Positions 2,700-63,326 of a stretch of DNA of 64,000 nucleotides are shown here, piece after piece. The notes under the pieces were generated by a model. It saw only the letters and a program-made list of their open reading frames with translations, made no database searches and was not told the DNA's origin. The DNA comes from an uncultured Thermodesulfobacteriota bacterium (GTDB taxonomy: Bacteria > Desulfobacterota > GWC2-55-46 > JADFVP01). Position 1 is the stretch's first letter. Every line of letters starts with the position of its first letter. Both the position numbers and the translations under genes were made by a program. The stretch lies in assembly GCA_964510775.1 (NCBI GenBank), contig CAZEBZ010000002.1, positions 8,447 to 72,446 of the forward strand, written 5' to 3'.

Positions 2700-3929
2700 T
2701 TATAACTTCGCGGCAAATCCGCCTATCAGCTCTCTAACCTCTGCCACATCAAGACGCTCGGCAAGAAGGGGCACAATAATGGGGCGCTCGGCCTCACCAT
2801 TAACCTCCTCAAGTATTACGTTCACAAAGGCAACAACTGCCGCCGGGTCGAACTGTGTGCCCGTATGCTTCTTAATCTCAGAGATTGCGGCATTAAAGCT
2901 GAGACGCGGCCTGTATGGCCTGTCAGTGGTCATGGCGTCAAAGGCATCCATGAGGGCCATCACCTTCGCACCAGCCGGTATCTCGCCGTGTGCAAGCCTG
3001 TCGGGGTAGCCCGTACCGTCGATCTTTTCGTGATGGTTGCGTGTCATCATGGCGATACCCTTCCAGGGGAAATGTATCTTCGAGAGTATCTCATACCCCA
3101 CTACGGGGTGAGAGTTAAGCTCTCGCACTTCCATGCTTGTCAGCGGGCTGGCCTTGTTGATTATAGTCTTGTCTACGGTAATCTTACCAATGTCATGGAG
3201 CAGGCCGGCGACTTTTATACCCTCTACCCGGGTCTTTGTCCAGCCCATCTTCTCTGCCACCACTGCGCTGTAGGCAGAGACCCTGTGAGAGTGCCCCTTT
3301 GTATATGCGTCCTTTGCGTCAATAGCCGTGGCAAAGGCATGGATAGTGTCGCGGTAAACCATGGAGAGATTATCATAAAGGCCCTTGTTCTCATTATACT
3401 TGTGCATAAGGCGTGTAAAGAGGGCGTTTGTATGGAGGCTGTAGGAGATATGCTGCGCCATAACAGAGAAGAGCTGTCTGTCGTAAAGTGTATAATCCTG
3501 CCCCGAGACCTTCTCGCTTATGGCTATAACGCCGAAGAGTTCTCCCTTTATCACAAGGGGAGAGGCTACTCTAACATTAAAACGGAGAAGCTCTTCTCTG
3601 AGGGTACCAAAGACAGCACCGCTGGCCTCATCATTCAGGTCAAAGGCCTGAAGGTTCACGCAAAGGGCCTTTATCGTATCCCTGCCGAGTATAAGGGTCT
3701 TGCCGCCAAGACCAGGTATGCCCTTTGCCGCTACAGAGGCAAAACACTTTTTTTCCCTGTCATAAGAGAGAATAACCCCCCTGGACGTAGAGAATGAGCC
3801 CATGACCATCATAAGGGAAGACCTCATAATCTTCACAAAATCCTTGGGTGAAGCTATCTCTTCGCCGAGCTCGGCAAGGGTATTAAGATGAAAGACAAGT
3901 TTTTCAAGACTTACATCAGGCACTACCAT
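2700..3929 (-). CDS. GAF domain + HD-GYP c-di-GMP phosphodiesterase
   Basis: 409 aa. The C-terminal half carries an HD motif (HSHRVSAYS...LLHDIGK) and HHEKIDGTGYP (HD-GYP signature). The N-terminal half is GAF-like. Confidence 0.85.
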   Translation of the reverse strand: MVVPDVSLEKLVFHLNTLAELGEEIASPKDFVKIMRSSLMMVMGSFSTSRGVILSYDREKKCFASVAAKGIPGLGGKTLILGRDTIKALCVNLQAFDLNDEASGAVFGTLREELLRFNVRVASPLVIKGELFGVIAISEKVSGQDYTLYDRQLFSVMAQHISYSLHTNALFTRLMHKYNENKGLYDNLSMVYRDTIHAFATAIDAKDAYTKGHSHRVSAYSAVVAEKMGWTKTRVEGIKVAGLLHDIGKITVDKTIINKASPLTSMEVRELNSHPVVGYEILSKIHFPWKGIAMMTRNHHEKIDGTGYPDRLAHGEIPAGAKVMALMDAFDAMTTDRPYRPRLSFNAAISEIKKHTGTQFDPAAVVAFVNVILEEVNGEAERPIIVPLLAERLDVAEVRELIGGFAAKL

Positions 3930-13685: not shown

Positions 13686-13736
13686 ATTCGATATATTATT
13701 AGCACAAGAATCAAGTATTGTATAACACAAGACCAC

Positions 13737-14150
13737 TTACTTTCTTTTAGAAACTTACTTTCTTTTAGAAAAAAGAAAGTAAGACAAAGAAAACCAATAT
13801 TAAATTTTACACATAAGCACTTAAAAACCAGCCTGCGCCACGCTTAAAAAAGTAAGACAAAGAAAACCAACGAGTATCAACGGGCCGCTAATTTAAATCT
13901 ATACAATGCACCAGAAATAGAAAAAAAGTAAAACAAAGATAACCAATGTTACAATTCGCACATAAGCACTTAAAAACCAGCCTGCGTCACGCTTAAAAAA
14001 GTAAGACAAAGAAAACCAACGAGTGTCAACGGGCCGCTAATTTAAAGCACTACACTAATACCCCAGACATAGAAAAAAGAAAGTAGGATAAAAAACCCAA
14101 AAATATTAACTATCGCTAATTTAAACCTGCAACGATACCCCAGGTACCGA
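13737..14150. repeat. Structured AT-rich tandem repeat: a 13-bp perfect inverted repeat followed by about 5 units of roughly 73 bp alternating between two types and sharing a 21-nt box AAGTAAGACAAAGAAAACCAA
   Basis: Two near-identical ~150-bp copies differ at 2-3 positions (about 13810-13905 vs 13950-14045). The 21-nt box recurs at about 13779, 13848, 13926, 13999 and 14077 in degenerate form. GCTAATTTAAA recurs three times. The hairpin CTTACTTTCTTTT-AGAA-AAAAGAAAGTAAG lies at 13756-13785. Confidence 0.8.
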
Positions 14151-16416: not shown

Positions 16417-16567
16417 ATCTTGATCAGTATAGTATTTTGTAAATTAACAGAACATTATAAGAGGGTAATCACAACAATCAAATACGGCGTTTCACAGGGC
16501 ATAACATATGCCTTCCCCCACATCACACCCCCATCAGCCCCCTATCTGCCCCCTCCTCACCCATGCC

Positions 16568-18130
16568 TCAGAGTATCTCGAACCTGTCTTGCTGAAACCT
16601 CTCCACAGCTACTATTGTTACTTTTTTTCCAAATTTATCCTCAAGATCCCCTAAGATGGCCGGTGTATCTTGCAGGCGCTCGGCGATAAGGGGGCTGCAG
16701 TAGAGCGTAGGCGTCTTTTTATCACAAAAATCTCTCATAAGAGACCTGTAAATATCCATCATTACCGTATGCTCGGACTTTATAAAACCAACGCCCTCAC
16801 AGGTGGGGCATGTCTTGCAGAGGGACTGTATAAGATTATTACGAAGACGCTTTCGCGTCATCTCCACAATCCCAAGGTCTGAGATGCGAAGTATATTCGT
16901 ACGGGCGCGGTCGGCTTTAAGGGCCTCGCGAAGGGCATTATATACCTTGTCTCTATCAGGGGCCTTTGCCATGTCAATAAAATCAATGACGATAATACCG
17001 CCGATATTGCGAAGCCTCAAGTTTCTTACAACAACATCTACGGCCTCAAGGTTGGTCTTGACTATCGTATGCTCGGAGTCCTTCCTGCCTACGTACTTAC
17101 CGGTATTTACGTCTATGGCCGTGAGGGCCTCCATCTGGTCTATTATAAGAAAACCGCCAGAGCGGAGCCATATCTTATTCTCAAGTGCGCCGTCAATCTC
17201 AATCTCAATGCCGTAACGCTCGAAAACACCCTCAGACCCCTCATAACGCTCCAGCTTTTTCACCAGAGCAGGCATAACCTCTCTTGTAAAGTTTCTTACC
17301 TTCTCAAACTCATCTTCTCTATCAAGAACAAGCCTCTTAACACTTGATGAGAACTTATCTCTCGCCGTCCTGAGGCTAAGGTCAAGCTCCTCGTGTAGAA
17401 GAGAGGGCGTTGGAGCCGTATCTTTTTTTTCGTCAATAGACCTCCAGAGCCTTACAAGATAGTCCATATCAGACTTCAGATCCGCCTCGGAGGCGCCCTC
17501 GCAGACCGTCCTTATGATAAAACCATAACCATCAGGACGCATGCCCTGCACTATCTTCTTAAGGCGGCGCCGCTCTCTGTCGCTGGAAATTCGCCTTGAT
17601 ACGGCCACCCTGTCATAGGAGGGCATAAATACGAGATACCTGCCGGCAAGTGAGATATAGGAGGAAACCCTCGCCCCTTTGCTGCCCATTGGCTCTTTCG
17701 TAACCTGAACGACTATGTCCTGGCCGTCTTTTAATATATCCTGTATCCTGAGGGTCTTGTACCTGCCCTTTGCGCCGCCACGACCACCGCCGCGGCCGCC
17801 TCTCCCCCCGCCTGCCCTGCCCTTGCCCTTAGCCCTGTCATCACCGCTATTATCAGGGAGGCTGTCCTCGGCCTGATCATCAACGTCGTCAAGGGTCTCC
17901 TGAATATCAGAGACATGAAGAAAGGCGGTGCGCGCAAGGCCCACGTTAATAAAGGCGGACTGCATACCGGGCAGAACCCTTGCGACCCTGCCCTTGTAGA
18001 CATTGCCAGTCACCTTACGGCCCTCGGGACGCTCTACATAAAGCTCGGCGAGGGAGCCGTTCTCAGTAATAGCCACCCTCGTCTCAAAGGGGTTGGAATT
18101 TACGAATATTTCTATCTTTTTTTCTCTCAT
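16568..18130 (-). CDS. rng: Ribonuclease G/E family endoribonuclease (Rng/CafA)
   Basis: The N-terminal S1 domain is followed by the RNase E/G catalytic core (DHH-like, zinc-link CKTCPTCEG). The start is placed at the internal Met of MREKKIEIF. The protein contains a Gly/Arg-rich insert. Confidence 0.85.
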   Translation of the reverse strand: MREKKIEIFVNSNPFETRVAITENGSLAELYVERPEGRKVTGNVYKGRVARVLPGMQSAFINVGLARTAFLHVSDIQETLDDVDDQAEDSLPDNSGDDRAKGKGRAGGGRGGRGGGRGGAKGRYKTLRIQDILKDGQDIVVQVTKEPMGSKGARVSSYISLAGRYLVFMPSYDRVAVSRRISSDRERRRLKKIVQGMRPDGYGFIIRTVCEGASEADLKSDMDYLVRLWRSIDEKKDTAPTPSLLHEELDLSLRTARDKFSSSVKRLVLDREDEFEKVRNFTREVMPALVKKLERYEGSEGVFERYGIEIEIDGALENKIWLRSGGFLIIDQMEALTAIDVNTGKYVGRKDSEHTIVKTNLEAVDVVVRNLRLRNIGGIIVIDFIDMAKAPDRDKVYNALREALKADRARTNILRISDLGIVEMTRKRLRNNLIQSLCKTCPTCEGVGFIKSEHTVMMDIYRSLMRDFCDKKTPTLYCSPLIAERLQDTPAILGDLEDKFGKKVTIVAVERFQQDRFEIL

Positions 18131-56261: not shown

Positions 56262-57077
56262 TTACTTTACATGGCAGGCAAGACAGAGATTACTCCCGTA
56301 ATTATCCATAACGAGCTGCGCGTGCGTACCTGAGTAGGGGCTGTGACAGGTGCCGCAGCCCACCATGCCGCCAAAAAACTTTATCTGCGGCGGTAGCGAC
56401 GCCATGTCCCTGTAGGCGCCCCTGTATTTTCTCTTTGCCTCGGCGTAGGATACACCTACGGGGTGCGTCAGACCTGTAATATTACTGTGGCGACTCCTGA
56501 AAATATCCTGATTTTCCACCATCGCGGAGCTGCCTACTATGGCATCATGACAGCTCAGACACTTTATGCTCATCTCGTCCAGACGGGCGCCGCCCTGAGC
56601 CTGAGGGGAATAAGATGCCTTAAGAGGCCTTGGAGCGCCGCCTATATGGGCATTTACACCGGAGAGAGTGTGTATCATATTATCATCAAGGCCGCTGTGG
56701 CATAATACGCAAAACCCCTGACCTCCGGCGCTTGTCCTCAGGTGACTGGGGCCAAACCCCTGATGATGTATCTCGTGACAGGTGAGGCATGTAACCATAC
56801 CTCTCCAATCCAAGGGAAAATAAGAAGGCACCTTCATCGCGGGCGTAATGTCAACGGGATGAGTAAGCCCCTCCTCCTGGCGGTGACACTCCATACATAA
56901 CCCTGTTATATCCTTTCTTAATGTAGGTTTTTTATCTCCTGCGCCGGGAATTTTAATATGACAATCCAGACATCTCCCTGTAAAATCATGATAAGCGCCT
57001 GCCGTCCTACCGGGAACTTTAGCCGAGAATACCAGCGCACCAGCGATTAAAACAAGCAATAAGAGTACCTTCTTCAC
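56262..57077 (-). CDS. Heptaheme c-type cytochrome
   Basis: 271 aa. The GTG start is preceded by an AGAGG Shine-Dalgarno sequence. It has a signal peptide and seven CxxCH motifs (CLDCH, CMECH, CLTCH, CVLCH, CLSCH, CGTCH, CLACH), with a GLTHPV distal-ligand motif repeated twice. Confidence 0.8.
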   Translation of the reverse strand: MKKVLLLLVLIAGALVFSAKVPGRTAGAYHDFTGRCLDCHIKIPGAGDKKPTLRKDITGLCMECHRQEEGLTHPVDITPAMKVPSYFPLDWRGMVTCLTCHEIHHQGFGPSHLRTSAGGQGFCVLCHSGLDDNMIHTLSGVNAHIGGAPRPLKASYSPQAQGGARLDEMSIKCLSCHDAIVGSSAMVENQDIFRSRHSNITGLTHPVGVSYAEAKRKYRGAYRDMASLPPQIKFFGGMVGCGTCHSPYSGTHAQLVMDNYGSNLCLACHVK

Positions 57078-57114
57078 CTCGACAAAACCTCTGAATTGTA
57101 TTAGCCCCGCACAT

Positions 57115-57123
57115 GGGGGGGGG
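57115..57123. repeat. Homopolymeric G tract (G9; C9 on the coding strand) 38 nt upstream of the heptaheme cytochrome start
   Basis: acatGGGGGGGGGcactcg, inside the 53-nt gap between the HAMP-protein gene and the heptaheme cytochrome gene. Confidence 0.7.
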
Positions 57124-57130
57124 CACTCGT

Positions 57131-57745
57131 TTATTGGGCGGTCTTTATTGCTGAGATTCTTGAACTCAGCTCTTTTACGAGCCCCTCAAGCTCCCTTATA
57201 CCCTCGGCAGCTTCCCCCTCAAGACACTCACCGCTCCCCTCAAGCTCCTCAGCCTCTCGCAGAAGGGCACAGAGACTGCCGCTCTGTTTTTTTACGGCCA
57301 TTAAAGACTCCCTGGACTCTACGACAAGCCCTGTGAGTCTCTCTGTCATTTTATTCTTTTCTCTTGCCAGAAGAGCCAGTTGGTCACTCTCACGAAAAGA
57401 CGTCTCTACCGTAAGGTCTCCTGAGGCAAGAAGCTCAAGGTCGCGTGTAAGCCTGAAGATCGGGCCAGCCATCTTATGAGAGAAAAATATCGAGGTCAGG
57501 GCGATAAAGACTACGGTAACAACCATAGTGGCTATGGAATAGACTGAGGCCAATACGAGAGAGAAGATATTTATCCTCAGTGAGTATATGGCATACATGG
57601 CCTCGCCATAGGAATGGCCAAGGTCACGGCCCGTAACAAGATAAAGACCGATAGTGAGGGCCGAGAAACCGGCCGCCGTAAGGAGACAGAACTTTATCAG
57701 GAATTTAAGCTGAAAACTGCCCTCAAGCAGTCTAACACTCCTCAT
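57131..57745 (-). CDS. Small membrane protein: 2 TM helices + HAMP-like linker + C-terminal coiled coil, no output domain
   Basis: 204 aa. The TMs are at about residues 15-37 and 60-88, followed by HKMAGPIFRLTRDLELLASGDLTVETSFRESDQLALLAREKNKMTERL (HAMP pattern) and a coiled coil. A GGAGG Shine-Dalgarno lies 8 nt upstream of the ATG. Confidence 0.5.
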   Translation of the reverse strand: MRSVRLLEGSFQLKFLIKFCLLTAAGFSALTIGLYLVTGRDLGHSYGEAMYAIYSLRINIFSLVLASVYSIATMVVTVVFIALTSIFFSHKMAGPIFRLTRDLELLASGDLTVETSFRESDQLALLAREKNKMTERLTGLVVESRESLMAVKKQSGSLCALLREAEELEGSGECLEGEAAEGIRELEGLVKELSSRISAIKTAQ

Positions 57746-57840
57746 AGATTTCCCTCCTTCAAAGAGATAGCACTAATCCCAAAAACGTAAAAAGTCCACT
57801 AATCCCTACTATCACCGATGCCCGCGCTATGGTTTTTACC

Positions 57841-57869
57841 TTGACACTCTGGTGCGCGATTACTATAGT
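57841..57869 (+). promoter_or_regulatory. Near-consensus sigma70-type promoter (TTGACA-17 bp-TATAGT) on the plus strand
   Basis: ttgaca ctctggtgcgcgattac tatagt. It reads toward the G-rich repeat block and tRNA-Cys. It was identified from the sequence only. Confidence 0.4.
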
Positions 57870-57985
57870 GTCTATGTCTTTACTATCGGCGTCTCAGGCG
57901 AAAAGTTTAAGAAAAAGGGCGCTGCAAGAGGTATAATAAGGACGCGACACTTAAGAGACGCACTAAGGGCCTCATCTTGCTAACA

Positions 57986-58142
57986 GGGTAGAGGGCATAA
58001 GGGGTAGAGAGCAGAAGGGGCAGAGGGCATAAGGGGTAGAGGGCATAAGGGGTAAGAGGCAGGAGAGGGGCAGAGGGCAGGAGAGGGGCAAGGGGCAGGA
58101 GAGGGGCAGAGGGCAGCAGGGGTACAGGGGACAGGAGGGGTA
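57986..58142 (+). repeat. G-rich tandem repeat of 18-nt units (AGGGCATAAGGGGTAGAG x3, then GGGCAGGAGAGGGGCAGA x3-4)
   Basis: The plus strand carries GGG/GGGG runs every 6-9 nt over about 160 nt. The spurious minus-strand ORF across it translates as repeated PLPLSCPLPLSC, which reflects the periodicity. Confidence 0.8.
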
Positions 58143-58213
58143 AAGAAAGGGCGGGGTCATAAAACCCGCCGTCTCATTGAACCTTTTTAAGATTACACAT
58201 ACATTTACACTCT

Positions 58214-58289
58214 GGCGGCGTACCCAAGTGGCTAAGGGAGCAGTCTGCAACACTGCCATCCAGCGGTTCGAATCCGCTCGCCGCCTCCA
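58214..58289 (+). tRNA. tRNA-Cys (GCA), CCA encoded
   Basis: GGCGGCGTACCCAAGTGGCTAAGGGAGCAGTCTGCAACACTGCCATCCAGCGGTTCGAATCCGCTCGCCGCCTCCA. It has a 7-bp acceptor stem, the anticodon loop CTGCAAC with anticodon GCA, and a GGTTCGAAT T-loop. Confidence 0.9.
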
Positions 58290-58312
58290 TTTTTTCTTAT
58301 ACTCTCATAAAT

Positions 58313-58340
58313 AAAAAAGGGCCCTTAAGGGCCCTTTTTT
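58313..58340. terminator. Bidirectional intrinsic terminator (A6-GGGCCC-TTAA-GGGCCC-T6)
   Basis: A perfect 6-bp GC stem with a 4-nt loop is flanked by an A-tract and a T-tract. It lies 23 nt downstream of tRNA-Cys (plus strand) and about 110 nt downstream of the minus-strand M20 peptidase gene. Confidence 0.6.
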
Positions 58341-58449
58341 ATTATTCTTTATTCTTAATAATTAATTTAACATCCCTTCCGGAGCCCACACCTCTCACTC
58401 TCTCATCTGCCGCAGCGGCGTGGTAACAGCATAGGCTCCTGCAAAAAAA

Positions 58450-59694
58450 TCACGGACAGGGTTTTATATCAGGCAGGCCCTTTATGAGATAACAGACTGA
58501 GAGCCAGGCAAGAGTCTTTACTCCAACCTCAAGGGCCTTCTCATCCACATCAAAATCCGAGCTATGCAGCTTAGCCGTAAGGCCCTTTGCCTTATTCGAG
58601 GTACCGAGCCTAAAGAGCGCGCCCGGTATCTGCTCGGTAAAGTATGCAAAGTCCTCGGCGCCCATCTTGGGATCGGGCATGGTTATAACGTTATCCTCGC
58701 CTATGACATGAGTGGCGCACCTGCTTATAAGTCCGTCTACGGCGGCGTCATTTACCACAGCAGGCGTACCGAACTCATAATCAAGCTCATAACCGCCGCC
58801 CATACCCTCGGTAACACCGCGTATAGTATCTTCCACAAAGGCGCGCACCTGCATCCTCGCCCCCTTGCTAAGGGTACGCACCGTGCCTTCCATCTCCACC
58901 CTATCGGCTATTACGTTAAGGGCCGTACCGCCATGAATCGTGCCTATGGAGATAACAGCGTGATGGAGCGGGTCTGTACGGCGGCTTACTATATGCTGCA
59001 TGGCATTTACGACAAGGGCAGACAAGAGCACGGCGTCAACGCACTGATGAGGCCTTGAGGCATGGCCGCTTTTTCCAAGCACCACAACCTTGAACTTATC
59101 GGCAGAGGCCGTCATAATACCGGCCTTATGTGCAATAGTACCTGCCTCCATCTCAGGAAAGCAGTGCAGAGCAACTATTGCCCCTGGCCTTGGGTCAAGA
59201 AGCGCACCGTCCTCTATCATCATCGAGGCCCCTGTAATACTCCTCTCCTCAGAAGGCTGAAATATTAGTTTTATCGTCCCCTTAATACGATCTTTTACTG
59301 CGGCAAGAACCATAGCCGTACCAAGGAGCACAGAAGTATGTACGTCGTGACCACAGGCGTGCATAACACCGGGAACATCAGAGGCGTAATCCACATCCTT
59401 ACTGTCCTGTATTGGCAGTGCGTCCATATCGGCCCTAAGGGCGATTGTCCGCCCCTCTCCTGCGCCGCCTCTTATAAGGGCTATAATACCGTGGCCCCCG
59501 ACATTTCTTCTCATCTCTACGCCAAGACTCTCAAGCACTCCCGCCACAAGATTAGAGGTCTTTTCCTCCTCTCCTGATAGCTCGGGCGCACTGTGAAGCT
59601 CACGCCTCAGCTCCTGTACCCTCTCTTTTACGCCATGCGCCCCGTCTATTATAGCCTCAAAAATAGCGGCCTCTGCCTCACTCTTATCACTCAT
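58450..59694 (-). CDS. M20D family amidohydrolase/peptidase (aminoacylase/hippurate hydrolase-like)
   Basis: 414 aa with M20 metal-binding blocks (MHACGHDVHTS and GxxEE in EERSITGASMMIEDG) and a dimerisation domain. Confidence 0.8.
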   Translation of the reverse strand: MSDKSEAEAAIFEAIIDGAHGVKERVQELRRELHSAPELSGEEEKTSNLVAGVLESLGVEMRRNVGGHGIIALIRGGAGEGRTIALRADMDALPIQDSKDVDYASDVPGVMHACGHDVHTSVLLGTAMVLAAVKDRIKGTIKLIFQPSEERSITGASMMIEDGALLDPRPGAIVALHCFPEMEAGTIAHKAGIMTASADKFKVVVLGKSGHASRPHQCVDAVLLSALVVNAMQHIVSRRTDPLHHAVISIGTIHGGTALNVIADRVEMEGTVRTLSKGARMQVRAFVEDTIRGVTEGMGGGYELDYEFGTPAVVNDAAVDGLISRCATHVIGEDNVITMPDPKMGAEDFAYFTEQIPGALFRLGTSNKAKGLTAKLHSSDFDVDEKALEVGVKTLAWLSVCYLIKGLPDIKPCP

Positions 59695-59753
59695 AAACCC
59701 AAGACTCCTTTAGCTGACTCTATCAATTGATTATCATAATGACGGGCCGCTCA

Positions 59754-61337
59754 TTAATGAGAAATTTTCCTTACAGCGCCGCCTCGCCTGTGGTCTCCAG
59801 AGCCGCTTAAAACCCCTCCCTCACTGACAATAGTATGAACGCCGCCAAAATACATGTCCTTCTTTCTCCACTTCTTAACCTCGGCGCCGGCGGCGACGAG
59901 TGCATCTATCTCAGAGGCACAAATACCTGCCTCAACATCTGTGACTCCCTCCTCAGAGTGAATGCGCGGCGAGTTTACGGCCTCGTAAACGGGCAGATTA
60001 AAGTCTACTACATTAAGTATAGTCTGCAGCACAGCGCTCCGTATACGCTTTGAGCCGCCGCTGCCAAGCACCATCTCTCCGGCGCCACCTCTCATCACGA
60101 TAGTCGGAGACATCATTGAGCTGAGCCTCACTCCTGCCGTTATGGCATGAAAACCCTGTGGGTTAAGGTCGTGCTCGCCAAGCATATTGTTCATCATTAT
60201 CCCCGTGCCGGGAATCATAAATCCGCAGCCCATGCCAACTGACGTTGTCATGGAGACAAGGTTGCCTGCCTCGTCTGCAACGCTTATATGCGTAGTATCG
60301 CCAAGGGGCCGCGGGCCCGCCTGATCCGCACCATCGGCCTGCGCGCCCTGCTCGGCAAGACGCCTTCTAAAACCGCTGATATGTTCGTTAGATAAAAACC
60401 TCTCCAGAAGCCCTTTAGCAAACAAATTGTGGTCAAAAGAAGCGCGCCGAGCCTCGTCCGTAAGCTTCATGACTTGAGAGAGAGACCTCATATAAGGGGC
60501 GCTGTTATGGCCAAGGCCCTGCACGTCCATATCCTCAAGAAGTCTCAGCGCAAAGGCTATGAGCGCGCCGCCGGAAGATGGCGGGGGGTTTGTGTATATG
60601 TTTCTTCCCCTGTAGGCGAACTCAAGGGGTTTTCTTATAATAGGCCGATACAGCGCAAGGTCTTCTTCTGTAATGAGACCGCCCTTTTGAGGGCCAAATT
60701 CCTCTAAGAGGCCCTCGGCGATATTACCGGTATAAAAACTCATCAGCCCATCGCTGGCAAGAGACTCAAAAGTATCTGCCATGAGCCCGTGTTTAATAAT
60801 ACCGCCCTCGGCGATAGCTTGGCCGCCGGGCATGTATATTTCAGTCGACGCAGCTGAGGCCTCGAACATGGGCTGAAGCAGTGTGTTAAAGTAGCTCTGC
60901 GCCGCTGTTACGGGAAATCCGCCTCGCGCCATGCTTATGGCAGGCTCAAGAAGAACGTCTACGGGCAGCGTGCAGTGCCTCTTTCGCACCTCCTCAAGAC
61001 CTGCGACAACGCCGGGCACGGCAGCCGCTGCGCGCCCGATATAAACAGTCTGCAGGGCATCGGCAAAGTCTATCTGAAGAGGGAAAAAATCAATCTCATC
61101 TCTACTCTTGGCGCCAAGACCGGGCATTGTAGTAAAAAAATCATATACAATATTCTCGCCCCCCGCGCCATGGACAGTCATAAAACCGCCGCCTCCGGCG
61201 CTCGTTAAGGCCCCTTCTGCTACAAAAGAGGCAAAGGCCGCCGCAACGGCAGCATCAAAGGCATTGCCGCCTCTTTCAAACATAGAGGCCCCTGCCTCTG
61301 CGGTAAGCTCGTGCCCGCCTACGATTATACCCTTCAA
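59754..61337 (-). CDS. ggt: Gamma-glutamyltransferase
   Basis: 527 aa of the GGT family. The autoprocessing and catalytic Thr lies in GDTTHISVADEAGN, with conserved C-terminal small-subunit blocks (GGSKRIRSA). Confidence 0.9.
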   Translation of the reverse strand: MKGIIVGGHELTAEAGASMFERGGNAFDAAVAAAFASFVAEGALTSAGGGGFMTVHGAGGENIVYDFFTTMPGLGAKSRDEIDFFPLQIDFADALQTVYIGRAAAAVPGVVAGLEEVRKRHCTLPVDVLLEPAISMARGGFPVTAAQSYFNTLLQPMFEASAASTEIYMPGGQAIAEGGIIKHGLMADTFESLASDGLMSFYTGNIAEGLLEEFGPQKGGLITEEDLALYRPIIRKPLEFAYRGRNIYTNPPPSSGGALIAFALRLLEDMDVQGLGHNSAPYMRSLSQVMKLTDEARRASFDHNLFAKGLLERFLSNEHISGFRRRLAEQGAQADGADQAGPRPLGDTTHISVADEAGNLVSMTTSVGMGCGFMIPGTGIMMNNMLGEHDLNPQGFHAITAGVRLSSMMSPTIVMRGGAGEMVLGSGGSKRIRSAVLQTILNVVDFNLPVYEAVNSPRIHSEEGVTDVEAGICASEIDALVAAGAEVKKWRKKDMYFGGVHTIVSEGGVLSGSGDHRRGGAVRKISH

Positions 61338-62485
61338 CTCCCCTCGCCCTCCTTCTCTCTTGTCTGCATAACATCAGACTCGAAGAGACTGGCGAGCTCA
61401 CGGCAGAGTTCCTTAAAACTGCCTCTTTCCTCGCAAATTTCTATCTGCCTCACGGCTCCAGTATCTCCTCGCCTAAGCAGCCCCTCAAGAGAAGCGAGAT
61501 AAGACTCCGTCTTAAGAGAGGAGGCTCCGGCTGCGCACCACTGAAGAAGCTCCAATATGGCCTTTCTCGCGGTTATAGTAGCTGAGCCGTCTTCTGTGAT
61601 GAACTCACCCTCAAGACCATACCTGCAGGCACGCCACTTATTCTCCCTGATAATCGCCGAGTGAGGCCGCTTAAAGCAGACACTACGGTCAAAGTCCTCA
61701 CCAAACCTCTTTACAAGGGCCTGGATAAAGGCGGCTATGTTCATAACCTCGCCAAGGGTAGAGGGTATGTCGCATATTCTCACCTCTATGGTACCGAAAT
61801 TAGGGTGGGGCCGCACGTCCCACCAGAGCTCGCGAATAGTCTTGATAGTGCCTGTTGAGATATATGTATTTACAAGACGGGTATAATCGGCGAAGTTATG
61901 AAAATAAAAGGGCAGCCCGCCGATGGGAAGGTTCTCAAAGACCTTTGTCCTGTAAGACATTAACCCCGTGCGCTCACCCTCCCAGAATGGCGAGTTTGAG
62001 GTAAGGGCAAGGAGATGGGGCAGGTAATAGAGCAGCCTGTTCATTACATATATGCATTTTTCCGCGCTGCTTATACCCACATGAACGTGAAGCCCAAAGA
62101 TATTAAAACGTCTGGCAACCATCTGCAGGTTATCAAGAAGCTCGTTGTACCTCTCATCTGACGTAACGCTCTGCGCCTTCCAGCGCGAGAAGGGATGAGT
62201 GCTTGCCGCGGCGATAAGAACGCCTTGCTTCTTTGCCGCCCTTATAACAGGCGCAAGCGTGGAGCTGAGGTCAGCCTGCGCCTCGGCCACGCTGTAGCAT
62301 TTTTTTGATATTACCTCAAGGTTACTCCGCATAAGCTCGTGTTTTACAGAGCCTCTTAGCCCATCGAGAGAATCGATAATATGAGAAGAGCGCGGCACAA
62401 GCTCAAGGGTCTCGCTGTCAAGGAGCTGCAGCTCAAGCTCTACGCCAAGCGTAAGATCTTCAAGACCATTATAGGCTATATCCAT
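61334..62485 (-). CDS. Carboxylate-amine ligase, YbdK/GCS2 family (putative glutamate--cysteine ligase 2)
   Basis: 383 aa. The N-terminus LTLGVELELQLLD and the H...HVHVG blocks are typical of GCS2. The gene overlaps ggt by 4 nt. Confidence 0.8.
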   Translation of the reverse strand: MDIAYNGLEDLTLGVELELQLLDSETLELVPRSSHIIDSLDGLRGSVKHELMRSNLEVISKKCYSVAEAQADLSSTLAPVIRAAKKQGVLIAAASTHPFSRWKAQSVTSDERYNELLDNLQMVARRFNIFGLHVHVGISSAEKCIYVMNRLLYYLPHLLALTSNSPFWEGERTGLMSYRTKVFENLPIGGLPFYFHNFADYTRLVNTYISTGTIKTIRELWWDVRPHPNFGTIEVRICDIPSTLGEVMNIAAFIQALVKRFGEDFDRSVCFKRPHSAIIRENKWRACRYGLEGEFITEDGSATITARKAILELLQWCAAGASSLKTESYLASLEGLLRRGDTGAVRQIEICEERGSFKELCRELASLFESDVMQTREKEGEGS

Positions 62486-62566
62486 ACTTTATCCAGTCTC
62501 CACGAAGGTTTACCAACAATTTCAAGAGACCGCCACCTCCCACCTAATGAGAATAAGGGCCGTCCG

Positions 62567-62962
62567 TTAAATCTCTACCTTGACAGTATCGCCATCTACC
62601 TTTACTTTAAATGTCTTTAGATTGCCCGTCTTTATATGAGTCGTCACCTTACGGCTCACCTGCCTGCCCATTCGCCGTAAAAGACACTTAGGGCCGCTTC
62701 TGTCACCCTCGGCACGGCAGAGTACGGGGCCGCTAAGGGCCCTTCCATCATGAATATCAAACTGTGAGTAATGCCAGGGGCAGGTGAGTATGTACCCCAC
62801 AAGAGTGCCCTTATCAAGGCGCCCCCTCATGTGGCCGCACCTCTTTGAGAGGGCGTAAAACTGCCCGCCCTCATTGCATATCACTATCTCAGTACCCTCT
62901 ACAGTAAAACCCTTCATACCGCCAGGGGCTATCTCACAGGTCTTGGTCACCTCTACAAACAT
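62567..62962 (-). CDS. Rieske [2Fe-2S] domain protein (NirD-like small Rieske ferredoxin)
   Basis: 131 aa with CGHM...(17 aa)...CPWH Rieske boxes. Confidence 0.7.
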   Translation of the reverse strand: MFVEVTKTCEIAPGGMKGFTVEGTEIVICNEGGQFYALSKRCGHMRGRLDKGTLVGYILTCPWHYSQFDIHDGRALSGPVLCRAEGDRSGPKCLLRRMGRQVSRKVTTHIKTGNLKTFKVKVDGDTVKVEI

Positions 62963-62963
62963 A

Positions 62964-63326
62964 TCAAGTATCCCTCACGTCATCAGGGGCGATAATTTGC
63001 AGCGCCTCAGGGTCTGTTACGTCCTTATGTACAAAGAGACCGCACCAGCAGCGCTTCATTTTGTCAAAATGCTCTCTATGAAATGGAATACAGGGACATA
63101 CTATCTTCATATCAAGCTCGCGCTCACCTGTAAGGCCCTGACATGGGCAAAAGGGAGCACCCTCGCGTCCCTCGATAATAACCTCCTGCTCCAGAAGGAA
63201 ATCAACATCTTCCTCATCAGGGCTGAACTTATAACCCAGCTGGTCTACGATATACTCGAAGAGAAACCAGAGCGCCTTCTTCCTTGCCTCCAGCGTAGTT
63301 TTTGCCTTCTCCTCTACCTCTCCCAT
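62964..63326 (-). CDS. Ferredoxin:thioredoxin reductase catalytic-subunit-like protein (FtrB family; CPC/CPC/CWC)
   Basis: 120 aa. FCPCQG...(14 aa)...VCPCIPFHREHFDKMKRCWCGLF matches the FTR catalytic chain CPC-x-CPC-x-CHC cysteine pattern, except that Trp replaces the catalytic His of CHC. Confidence 0.65.
   Translation of the reverse strand: MGEVEEKAKTTLEARKKALWFLFEYIVDQLGYKFSPDEEDVDFLLEQEVIIEGREGAPFCPCQGLTGERELDMKIVCPCIPFHREHFDKMKRCWCGLFVHKDVTDPEALQIIAPDDVRDT

Follow-up and report, generated by a model that had tools for sequence, protein, structure and literature searches.

What a long G-rich tandem repeat might be doing in the gap between a multihaem cytochrome operon and a tRNA-Cys gene is the question raised by one locus of an uncultured Thermodesulfobacteriota bacterium. 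The DNA analysed comprises a stretch of 64,000 nucleotides (64 kb), here called the window, together with 8-kb slices from its relatives, and the part of the window that holds the gap (57400–58700) was read directly. A sequence-only reading of the locus had proposed that the repeat, acting as a G-quadruplex (G4) or as the target of a repeat-binding protein, governs a divergent control region that couples the supply of tRNA-Cys to the operon. The interval appears instead, with moderate confidence, to be a compact two-way control region built of ordinary parts, in which the G-rich block is a recent passenger.

The operon lies on the minus strand and consists of nine open reading frames (ORFs) encoding cytochromes, beta-propeller proteins and small membrane proteins, and a count of 32 CXXCH motifs bears out its earlier description as a 32-haem operon. 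Related loci were found through the first operon protein, of 204 residues, which has 12 homologues at 45–65% identity, all from uncultured Thermodesulfobacteriota. Contigs retrieved for 8 of the 12 provide eight independent views of the gap. The window lineage is designated L001/L002 and the related lineages L004–L006, L007/L008, L009, L010–L012, L013, L014/L015, L016 and L017. All eight share the gene order GCS2, gamma-glutamyl transpeptidase (GGT), M20 peptidase, tRNA-Cys, gap, 204-residue protein and cytochromes, where the contig extends far enough; the L007 contig stops just beyond tRNA-Cys, leaving only the tRNA and the operon side visible. In every relative the tRNA-Cys gene has stayed next to the operon and points away from it, with 500–1100 nt separating it from the homologue of the 204-residue protein. 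The window gene, tRNA-Cys(GCA) with an encoded CCA end, was correctly placed by the sequence-only reading at 58214 (58214–58289, plus strand) and is found at the same position in all the relatives.

The repeat is a genuine feature of the DNA, as are all the other sequence features given by the sequence-only reading, each at its stated position. Tandem Repeats Finder confirms a G-rich block of 157 nt at 57986–58142, with periods of 16, 18, 36 and 48 and 79–91% matches, and a repeat search recovers the block as families D1 and D2. The whole feature is a G4-capable minisatellite of about 9–10 units of 16/18 nt (57986–58148, plus strand, which is the non-template strand of the leader described below), its head-to-tail units falling within the minisatellite range of 10–60 bp. 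The G-rich tandem units announced earlier are thus present, but they are not all 18 nt long: the array opens with about four units of 16 nt (GGGGYAGAGGGCATAA), continues with about four of 18 nt (GGGGCAGAGGGCAGGAGA) and ends in decayed copies. Split at each GGGG, the array reads as one piece of 15 nt, three of 16 nt, three of 18 nt, one of 16 nt, one of 18 nt and a decayed 12-nt end, which runs into the hairpin arm GGGCGGGGTCATAA. The 18-mer unit finds six matches within the window against 0.14 expected, and no copies of the unit or of its flanking sequence occur elsewhere in the 64 kb. A Logan contig running across the whole array has the identical sequence, as does a JGI contig until it ends inside the array, which is therefore not an assembly artefact. 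Where the assemblies overlap they do not differ, although they probably sample one population.

The strong G4 potential that had been predicted is also borne out. The array is 55% G, 30% A, 10% C and 6% T (85% purine), ends 72 nt before tRNA-Cys and contains 17 runs of at least three Gs, or 19 counting the hairpin downstream. It has at least four runs of at least three Gs with loops of 1–7 nt, includes three canonical G3+N1-7 quadruplex motifs and reaches a G4Hunter mean of 1.59 over its 157 nt, above the usual 1.5; it is the longest G4-prone block in the window. Folded alone, the 157 nt yield only −8 kcal/mol with Watson–Crick pairs and −39 kcal/mol when G4s are allowed, and the G4 option of ViennaRNA gives three predicted G4s at 37 °C but no G4 at 60 °C. 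Composition-matched shuffles, with G4s allowed, fold just as well as the array (mean −46 kcal/mol, standard deviation 17), and the G4 potential is therefore a matter of composition rather than of how the units are arranged.

The array is absent from all eight related lineages that have the same gene order. The spacer between the sigma-28 motif discussed below and the tRNA could be measured in seven of them, where it is 130–350 nt long, cannot be aligned and contains one to seven G-runs, against 21 in the window. In a four-lineage alignment of the window with L004, L007 and L009 the array stands out as one large insertion just upstream of the leader hairpin. It is a tandem-repeat expansion private to the window lineage. 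This distribution speaks against a regulatory role for the G-repeat. The sequence-only reading had itself named repeats that are variable or absent in close relatives, with operon expression unchanged, as an outcome that would count against it; they are indeed absent from the relatives, though these are not close (45–65% identity), and the searches returned none that are closer.

Public collections were also scanned with a two-unit repeat pattern, and these scans gave no related element, only unrelated G-rich repeats. A scan of species-representative genomes, which evidently did not include the window's own genome, produced one match (L018), a coding repeat in an unrelated Eubacteriales genome, and a scan of JGI metagenomes produced four (L019–L022), all unrelated G-rich repeats without a nearby tRNA. 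Three of the latter (L019, L021 and L022) have near-identical GGGGCAGAGGGCA-type tandem units, with a C-rich tract coming after the G-rich one on the same strand, and look like convergent G-rich minisatellites. Since all the matches are unrelated, such G-rich units arise independently. A metagenome scan with the left flank for strain variants found none; the source contig itself was also not recovered, so the sample lies outside that collection.

The decayed end units of the array grade into the 5′ arm of the adjoining hairpin, which suggests growth in place by slippage rather than the arrival of a foreign element. A GGGG...CATAA sequence beside the leader hairpin is the likely seed, and this would have expanded by slippage or unequal exchange within an unconstrained part of the leader. 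The array would then be neutral, and any effect that it does have, be it slowed transcription, an R-loop or a G4, would be a side effect private to this lineage and not a conserved regulatory device.

In place of the array, the element conserved in this interval is a bipartite motif on the operon strand. The consensus for sigma-28 is TAAAGTTT-n11-GCCGATAA (PMC2859248), and the window carries a sigma-28/FliA-type promoter, TAAACTTT-N11-GCCGATAG, at 57883–57909 on the minus strand, directed toward the cytochrome operon and matching that consensus at 14 of 16 positions. The motif is present in the window, L004, L007, L009, L010, L013, L014 and L016 with 13–14 matches out of 16 (7/8 plus 6–7/8) and a spacer of always 11; its common form is TAAACTTT-N11-GCCGAT(A/G)N. 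L017, the most distant relative, is not among the carriers of the motif and is not part of alignment A2. In that alignment, of the window with the seven other relatives, the only invariant blocks are ATCGGC and AAAGTTTA on the plus strand, plus one isolated column, and the distance from ATCGGC to AAGTTTA is 12 nt throughout. Across the lineages the spacer varies in sequence and keeps its length, and this combination is the signature of a promoter, not of an RNA. The site is unique within the 64 kb, where about 0.002 exact matches would be expected by chance, and its −10 element is oriented toward the operon and lies 137–306 bp from the start codon of the first operon gene. As the only element conserved throughout, it likely marks the operon promoter at 57909–57883. 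A sigma-54 reading of the bipartite motif was rejected for want of a conserved GG/GC pair, and an extracytoplasmic function (ECF) sigma factor reading is possible in the form AAC...CG, but the sigma-28 match is far more specific.

From this promoter the nine-gene, 32-haem transcript would start at about 57874–57877 and would carry a 5′ untranslated region (UTR) of about 130 nt (57746–57876, minus strand, as predicted from the promoter position), at the end of which a GGAGG Shine–Dalgarno sequence precedes the ATG at 57745 by 8 nt. The promoter-proximal 80 nt or so of this 5′ UTR are conserved in the close subclade. The sequence-only reading had located the operon promoter at two CACTAATCCC direct repeats. 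These repeats do exist (57771–57780 and 57797–57806), are the sole two copies in the window and are not matched by chance, with 0 of 100 shuffles reaching two copies. Only the second copy lies inside a block, TAATCCCTRCTAT, that is common to the window, L004, L007 and L009, and both repeats would fall within the operon 5′ UTR; the sigma-28-type element takes their place as the likely promoter.

The textbook promoter described on the plus strand is present as well. It consists of TTGACA-17-TATAGT at 57841–57869, matches the sigma-70 consensus at 11 of 12 positions with a spacing inside the 16–18 bp expected between hexamers, and has a predicted start, like that of its neighbour, at about 57874–57877. 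The window, L004, L007 and L009 have the same two hexamers, with 8–10 spacer positions varying; the hexamers are decayed in L010 and L013 and absent in L014 and L016. A different strong promoter, TTGACT-N13-TGTGN-TATAAGG, lies about 45–90 nt before tRNA-Cys in L010–L012, L013, L014/L015 and L016, and the distal type is confined to the window (L001/L002), L004–L006, L007/L008 and L009. The distal and proximal types never co-occur, and where the distal promoter is present no further tRNA promoter can be recognised. In L017, read by eye, a promoter-like TTGACA stands near the tRNA, and about 17 bp beyond it comes an A/T-rich stretch that could be the −10 element. Because it occurs only where the proximal promoter is missing, the distal one is probably the promoter for tRNA-Cys, transcribed together with a leader of about 340 nt. 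Most simply, the proximal promoter would be ancestral; the window's subclade would have lost it and would now reach tRNA-Cys from the distal promoter, by way of a long unconstrained leader.

The sequence-only reading had left open whether this promoter yields a non-coding RNA of about 300 nt or a leader for tRNA-Cys, and the complementary distribution of the promoters favours the leader. Its further suggestion that tRNA-Cys supply is coupled to haem attachment is not supported, as the tRNA of the deeper lineages has its own promoter about 45–90 nt upstream and hence a control region common to tRNA and operon is not a general trait of the clade. In the window, the near-consensus sigma-70 promoter would start a precursor made of tRNA-Cys and a 5′ leader of about 337 nt (57877–58213, plus strand, predicted from the positions of promoter and tRNA); it would have taken over from the tRNA-proximal promoter on which deeper-branching relatives still rely. 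The array would be transcribed as a purine-only stretch without Watson–Crick structure, able to stack G-quadruplexes, and would be lost as RNase P and other nucleases free the tRNA from its precursor. Conservation of the leader is limited to its first 35 nt or so. Both the transcription starts and the processing of the leader are predictions.

The two promoters face each other. The plus-strand −10 element ends at 57869 and the minus-strand −10 element spans 57890–57883, leaving 13 bp between them, and at the usual spacing both predicted starts fall at about 57874–57877, so that each transcript would run through the opposing promoter within its first 35 nt. With starts within a few nucleotides of each other, RNA polymerase would occupy one promoter at a time, and the sigma-70 tRNA promoter and the sigma-28 operon promoter would compete for that occupancy. 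If it holds, the facing pair would be a competition switch between the two promoters that is confined to the subclade.

Several points weigh against this account. The start points and the sigma assignments of both promoters are predictions from the DNA sequence, and the window contains no flagellar or chemotaxis genes. More widely, neither flagellar genes nor a second sigma-28 site are found in the 64 kb window and the 8-kb slices of the relatives. Furthermore, GTGTCTATGTTA is conserved also in L010 and L013, where the TTGACA/TATAGT hexamers are decayed, and conservation around TTGACA...TATAGT could partly serve the minus-strand 5′ UTR. The relatives, at 45–65% amino-acid identity in the flanking protein, are distant, and the array could have acquired a function recently in this species. 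Finally, L004, L007 and L009 have a hairpin of −10 to −17 kcal/mol followed directly by U6–U8, 20–25 nt before tRNA-Cys; these hairpins, with their stem and then U-run, resemble intrinsic terminators. If efficient, they would make the distal promoter yield a separate RNA of 150–230 nt, and the tRNA would be reached by read-through.

The last of these points is also an argument for a discrete small RNA of about 300 nt that would contain the G-repeat, start at the plus-strand promoter and end at the hairpin and T-run (58151–58189), with tRNA-Cys expressed by read-through or from an unrecognised promoter, for which a weak TTGAAC-17-TACATT (8/12) at 58178–58206 is a candidate. The terminator-like elements are CTCATG...CATGAG hairpins with U6–U8, in lineages without the tRNA-proximal promoter (reverse-complement orientation; L004 3640–3680, L007 130–170 and L009 3715–3755), and the window hairpin occupies the same position. 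The latter, GGCGGG-N9-CCCGCC (58151–58171, plus strand, −15.2 kcal/mol), has the stem that the sequence-only reading had described, but it is not a canonical terminator: the T-run is T5 only (58185–58189), begins 13 nt after the stem, and a terminator scan makes no call at 58151–58189. Since the window stem differs and its U-run is displaced, termination there should be weaker. The body of such an RNA is not conserved among the relatives and belongs to no Rfam family, and a distal promoter that alternates with the proximal one, in lineages that have no other recognisable tRNA promoter, fits a tRNA promoter better. A discrete small RNA is therefore unlikely, although it keeps a low probability.

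The array might alternatively act in cis as DNA, with an R-loop and G4 that throttle tRNA-Cys, keep polymerase off the sigma-28 promoter or create a recombination hot spot. The geometry is suitable, in that the G-rich strand is non-template, begins about 110 nt past the predicted start and contains 17 G-runs, and there is a precedent for a promoter-driven R-loop and G4 (PMC3547852, PMC13463697); the JGI contig, moreover, breaks inside the array. Breaks at repeats are, however, expected on technical grounds, the assemblies agree where they overlap and so give no evidence of copy-number variation, neither donor cassettes nor further copies of the unit are present in the window, and nothing in the array is conserved, all of which makes an action in cis distinctly unlikely. 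A more specific proposal, that this lineage has recruited the array as a brake or insulator that works during transcription, with G4s stacked over a stable R-loop whenever the strong sigma-70 tRNA-Cys promoter fires, is a slightly longer shot. If true, the brake would set both the amount of completed tRNA-Cys precursor and the time that polymerase dwells over the facing sigma-28 promoter, giving a switch between a growth-linked tRNA promoter and an electron-transfer operon under a flagellar sigma factor, a coupling not described before. The regulator of the sequence-only reading, a G4 or a protein-bound repeat that ties tRNA-Cys supply to the 32-haem operon, can point to the strong G4 potential, to the position of the array between two neighbours whose adjacency is conserved in all the relatives and to the confirmed 32 CXXCH motifs. 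It is given little credence all the same: wherever a related lineage retains the operon, the tRNA and the sigma-28 motif, the array is missing; composition-matched shuffles equal it in G4 potential; the deeper lineages have a tRNA promoter close to the gene; and the array lies 110–270 bp upstream of the predicted operon start, outside the conserved blocks.

The remaining candidates are weaker still. A CsrB/RsmZ-type sponge that titrates a GGA-binding regulator is suggested by five GGA motifs in the array, four of them AGGA, but these have no hairpins to present them, Watson–Crick folding is negligible, no CsrB/Rsm family in Rfam is matched even at E up to 10 and the relatives lack the array, so that this role is very improbable. 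That the block encodes protein or is an assembly artefact can be given next to no weight. A 95-codon ORF does run along the C-rich strand (minus, 57972–58259); it begins inside the tRNA gene, consists of a low-complexity CPLPLS repeat without a Pfam match and is impossible in relatives that lack the array. The plus-strand frames are full of stop codons, and a second assembly spans the array identically while a third is identical up to its end.

The preferred reading therefore stays with a two-way control region in which the array is a passenger, and several other features of the interval were considered alongside it. Rfam searches of window positions 56500–59500 at E up to 10 gave no family other than tRNA, weak matches at 58296–58378 corresponding to the hairpin of a two-way terminator, and the eight related loci, at gathering score, likewise gave only tRNA. 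That terminator (58310–58343), with a 15-pair stem and T-runs on both strands, would serve tRNA-Cys on the plus strand and the M20 peptidase gene on the minus strand. A small ORF after the plus-strand promoter was rejected: its ATG at 57874 is conserved, but the lengths are 21, 37, 28, 6 and 9 codons and the frame shifts among relatives. A conserved RNA stem, CGCGC/GCGCG, around the −35 element was also set aside, being broken in L009. The 204- and 206-residue operon proteins have no Pfam family even at E up to 10, and a HAMP label for them was dropped. Short-read contigs break inside the array in L001 (at window position 58111) and inside tRNA-Cys in L002, L005, L006, L008 and L012. The idea that Logan contig ends inside tRNA-Cys mark transcript ends was abandoned because the breakpoints sit in sequence that is (near-)identical among all the relatives, and the breaks probably stem from the way in which assemblers treat sequence that is repeated, or shared within mixed samples.

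Some side observations concern the surroundings. A 16-nt direct repeat with 14 of 16 matches (D3) links 57837–57852 with 58200–58215; its first copy, TACCTTGACACTCTGG, spans the −35 element of the distal promoter and its second, TACATTTACACTCTGG, adjoins the 5′ end of the tRNA. The repeat may be the trace of an event that moved a promoter, or may be chance. On the far side of tRNA-Cys (window 58450–63000, L003 and all relatives) lies a conserved cluster for thiol and cysteine metabolism, with genes for the M20 peptidase, gamma-glutamyl transpeptidase, GCS2 glutamate–cysteine ligase, ferredoxin–thioredoxin reductase, glutaredoxin and Rieske proteins. Directly 3′ of tRNA-Cys in L004 (about 3490–3530), L009, L007, L010 and L016 there is a hairpin-plus-tail element, ACTTTCTTTTGGAAAAAAGAAAGT..GACAAAGAAAACCA, which in L016 occurs in tandem repeats. 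It does not follow tRNA-Cys in the window, where four copies are found at 13735–14078, in a 73/149-nt tandem repeat upstream of queA. The element is possibly a small mobile repeat or one resembling an attachment site. Other tracts of G-runs in the window are G-rich on the minus strand at 16506–16566, 671–717 and 17793–17831 and on the plus strand at 2618–2665, the part of this last at 2636–2651 containing a G11 run. These short tracts, some built of 11-nt or 6-nt repeats, are G-rich on the sense strand of minus-strand genes, and one falls in the gap before an RNase E/G gene.

The locus illustrates that a striking repeat beside a good promoter need not be a regulator, and that a long tRNA leader can apparently tolerate a 157-nt, purine-only, G4-prone insert. 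The G-repeat itself matters little, and the interest of the locus lies mainly in the conserved sigma-28-type promoter and in the arrangement of the facing promoters. The operon probably serves extracellular electron transfer, and a conserved promoter of this type before a multihaem operon in uncultured Thermodesulfobacteriota suggests that it is activated together with motility. In one subclade this promoter is, in addition, physically interlocked with the promoter of tRNA-Cys.

The separate parts of the locus can each be set beside a known system. Face-to-face (convergent) promoters, such as pR and pL of coliphage 186, cause transcriptional interference. As in the phage, the promoters here point at each other and either can be blocked when the other fires or is occupied, but the starts nearly coincide and the transcripts barely overlap, so that competition for binding is expected rather than collision, and the pair is predicted to use two different sigma factors. 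The operon promoter resembles the class 3 flagellar and chemotaxis promoters recognised by sigma-28 (FliA/SigD) in its 13–14 matches out of 16, its exact 11-bp spacer, its correct orientation and its sensible distance from the gene (PMC2859248). It differs from them in preceding a multihaem cytochrome operon and not flagellar or chemoreceptor genes. A literature search on FliA control of multihaem cytochromes returned nothing relevant.

For the array itself, the intergenic minisatellites of bacteria, also known as variable-number tandem repeats (VNTRs), offer a close parallel: the units of 16–18 bp are arranged head to tail and are about 80% alike, occur in one lineage only, occupy a region free of constraint and break contigs. 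The array departs from these in its extreme G and purine bias, in the regular spacing of its GGG(G) runs and in its position inside a predicted tRNA leader. Potential quadruplex sequences are reported to be most frequent just before and just after bacterial tRNA genes (Bartas et al. 2019, PMC6539912), and the array, 72 nt from its tRNA, conforms to that pattern, but the survey describes single short motifs and neither a 157-nt tandem array nor a mechanism. Where a promoter reads through a G4 tract that lies upstream of an operon, the nearest precedent in mechanism is the pilE G4/gar system of Neisseria gonorrhoeae, for which a promoter-driven R-loop and G4 have been described (PMC3547852, PMC13463697). 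In both cases a G4-capable tract lies upstream, and transcription from a neighbouring promoter crosses it while heading away from the operon, a setting that favours R-loop and G4 formation. A recombination initiator of the pilE type was nevertheless rejected, since the geometry of promoter and G4 is present but donor copies are absent in the window. The locus described here has 17 G-runs in a repeat array in place of one 16-nt G4 motif, shows neither silent donor copies nor signs of recombination, and has a tract that is not conserved even among its relatives.

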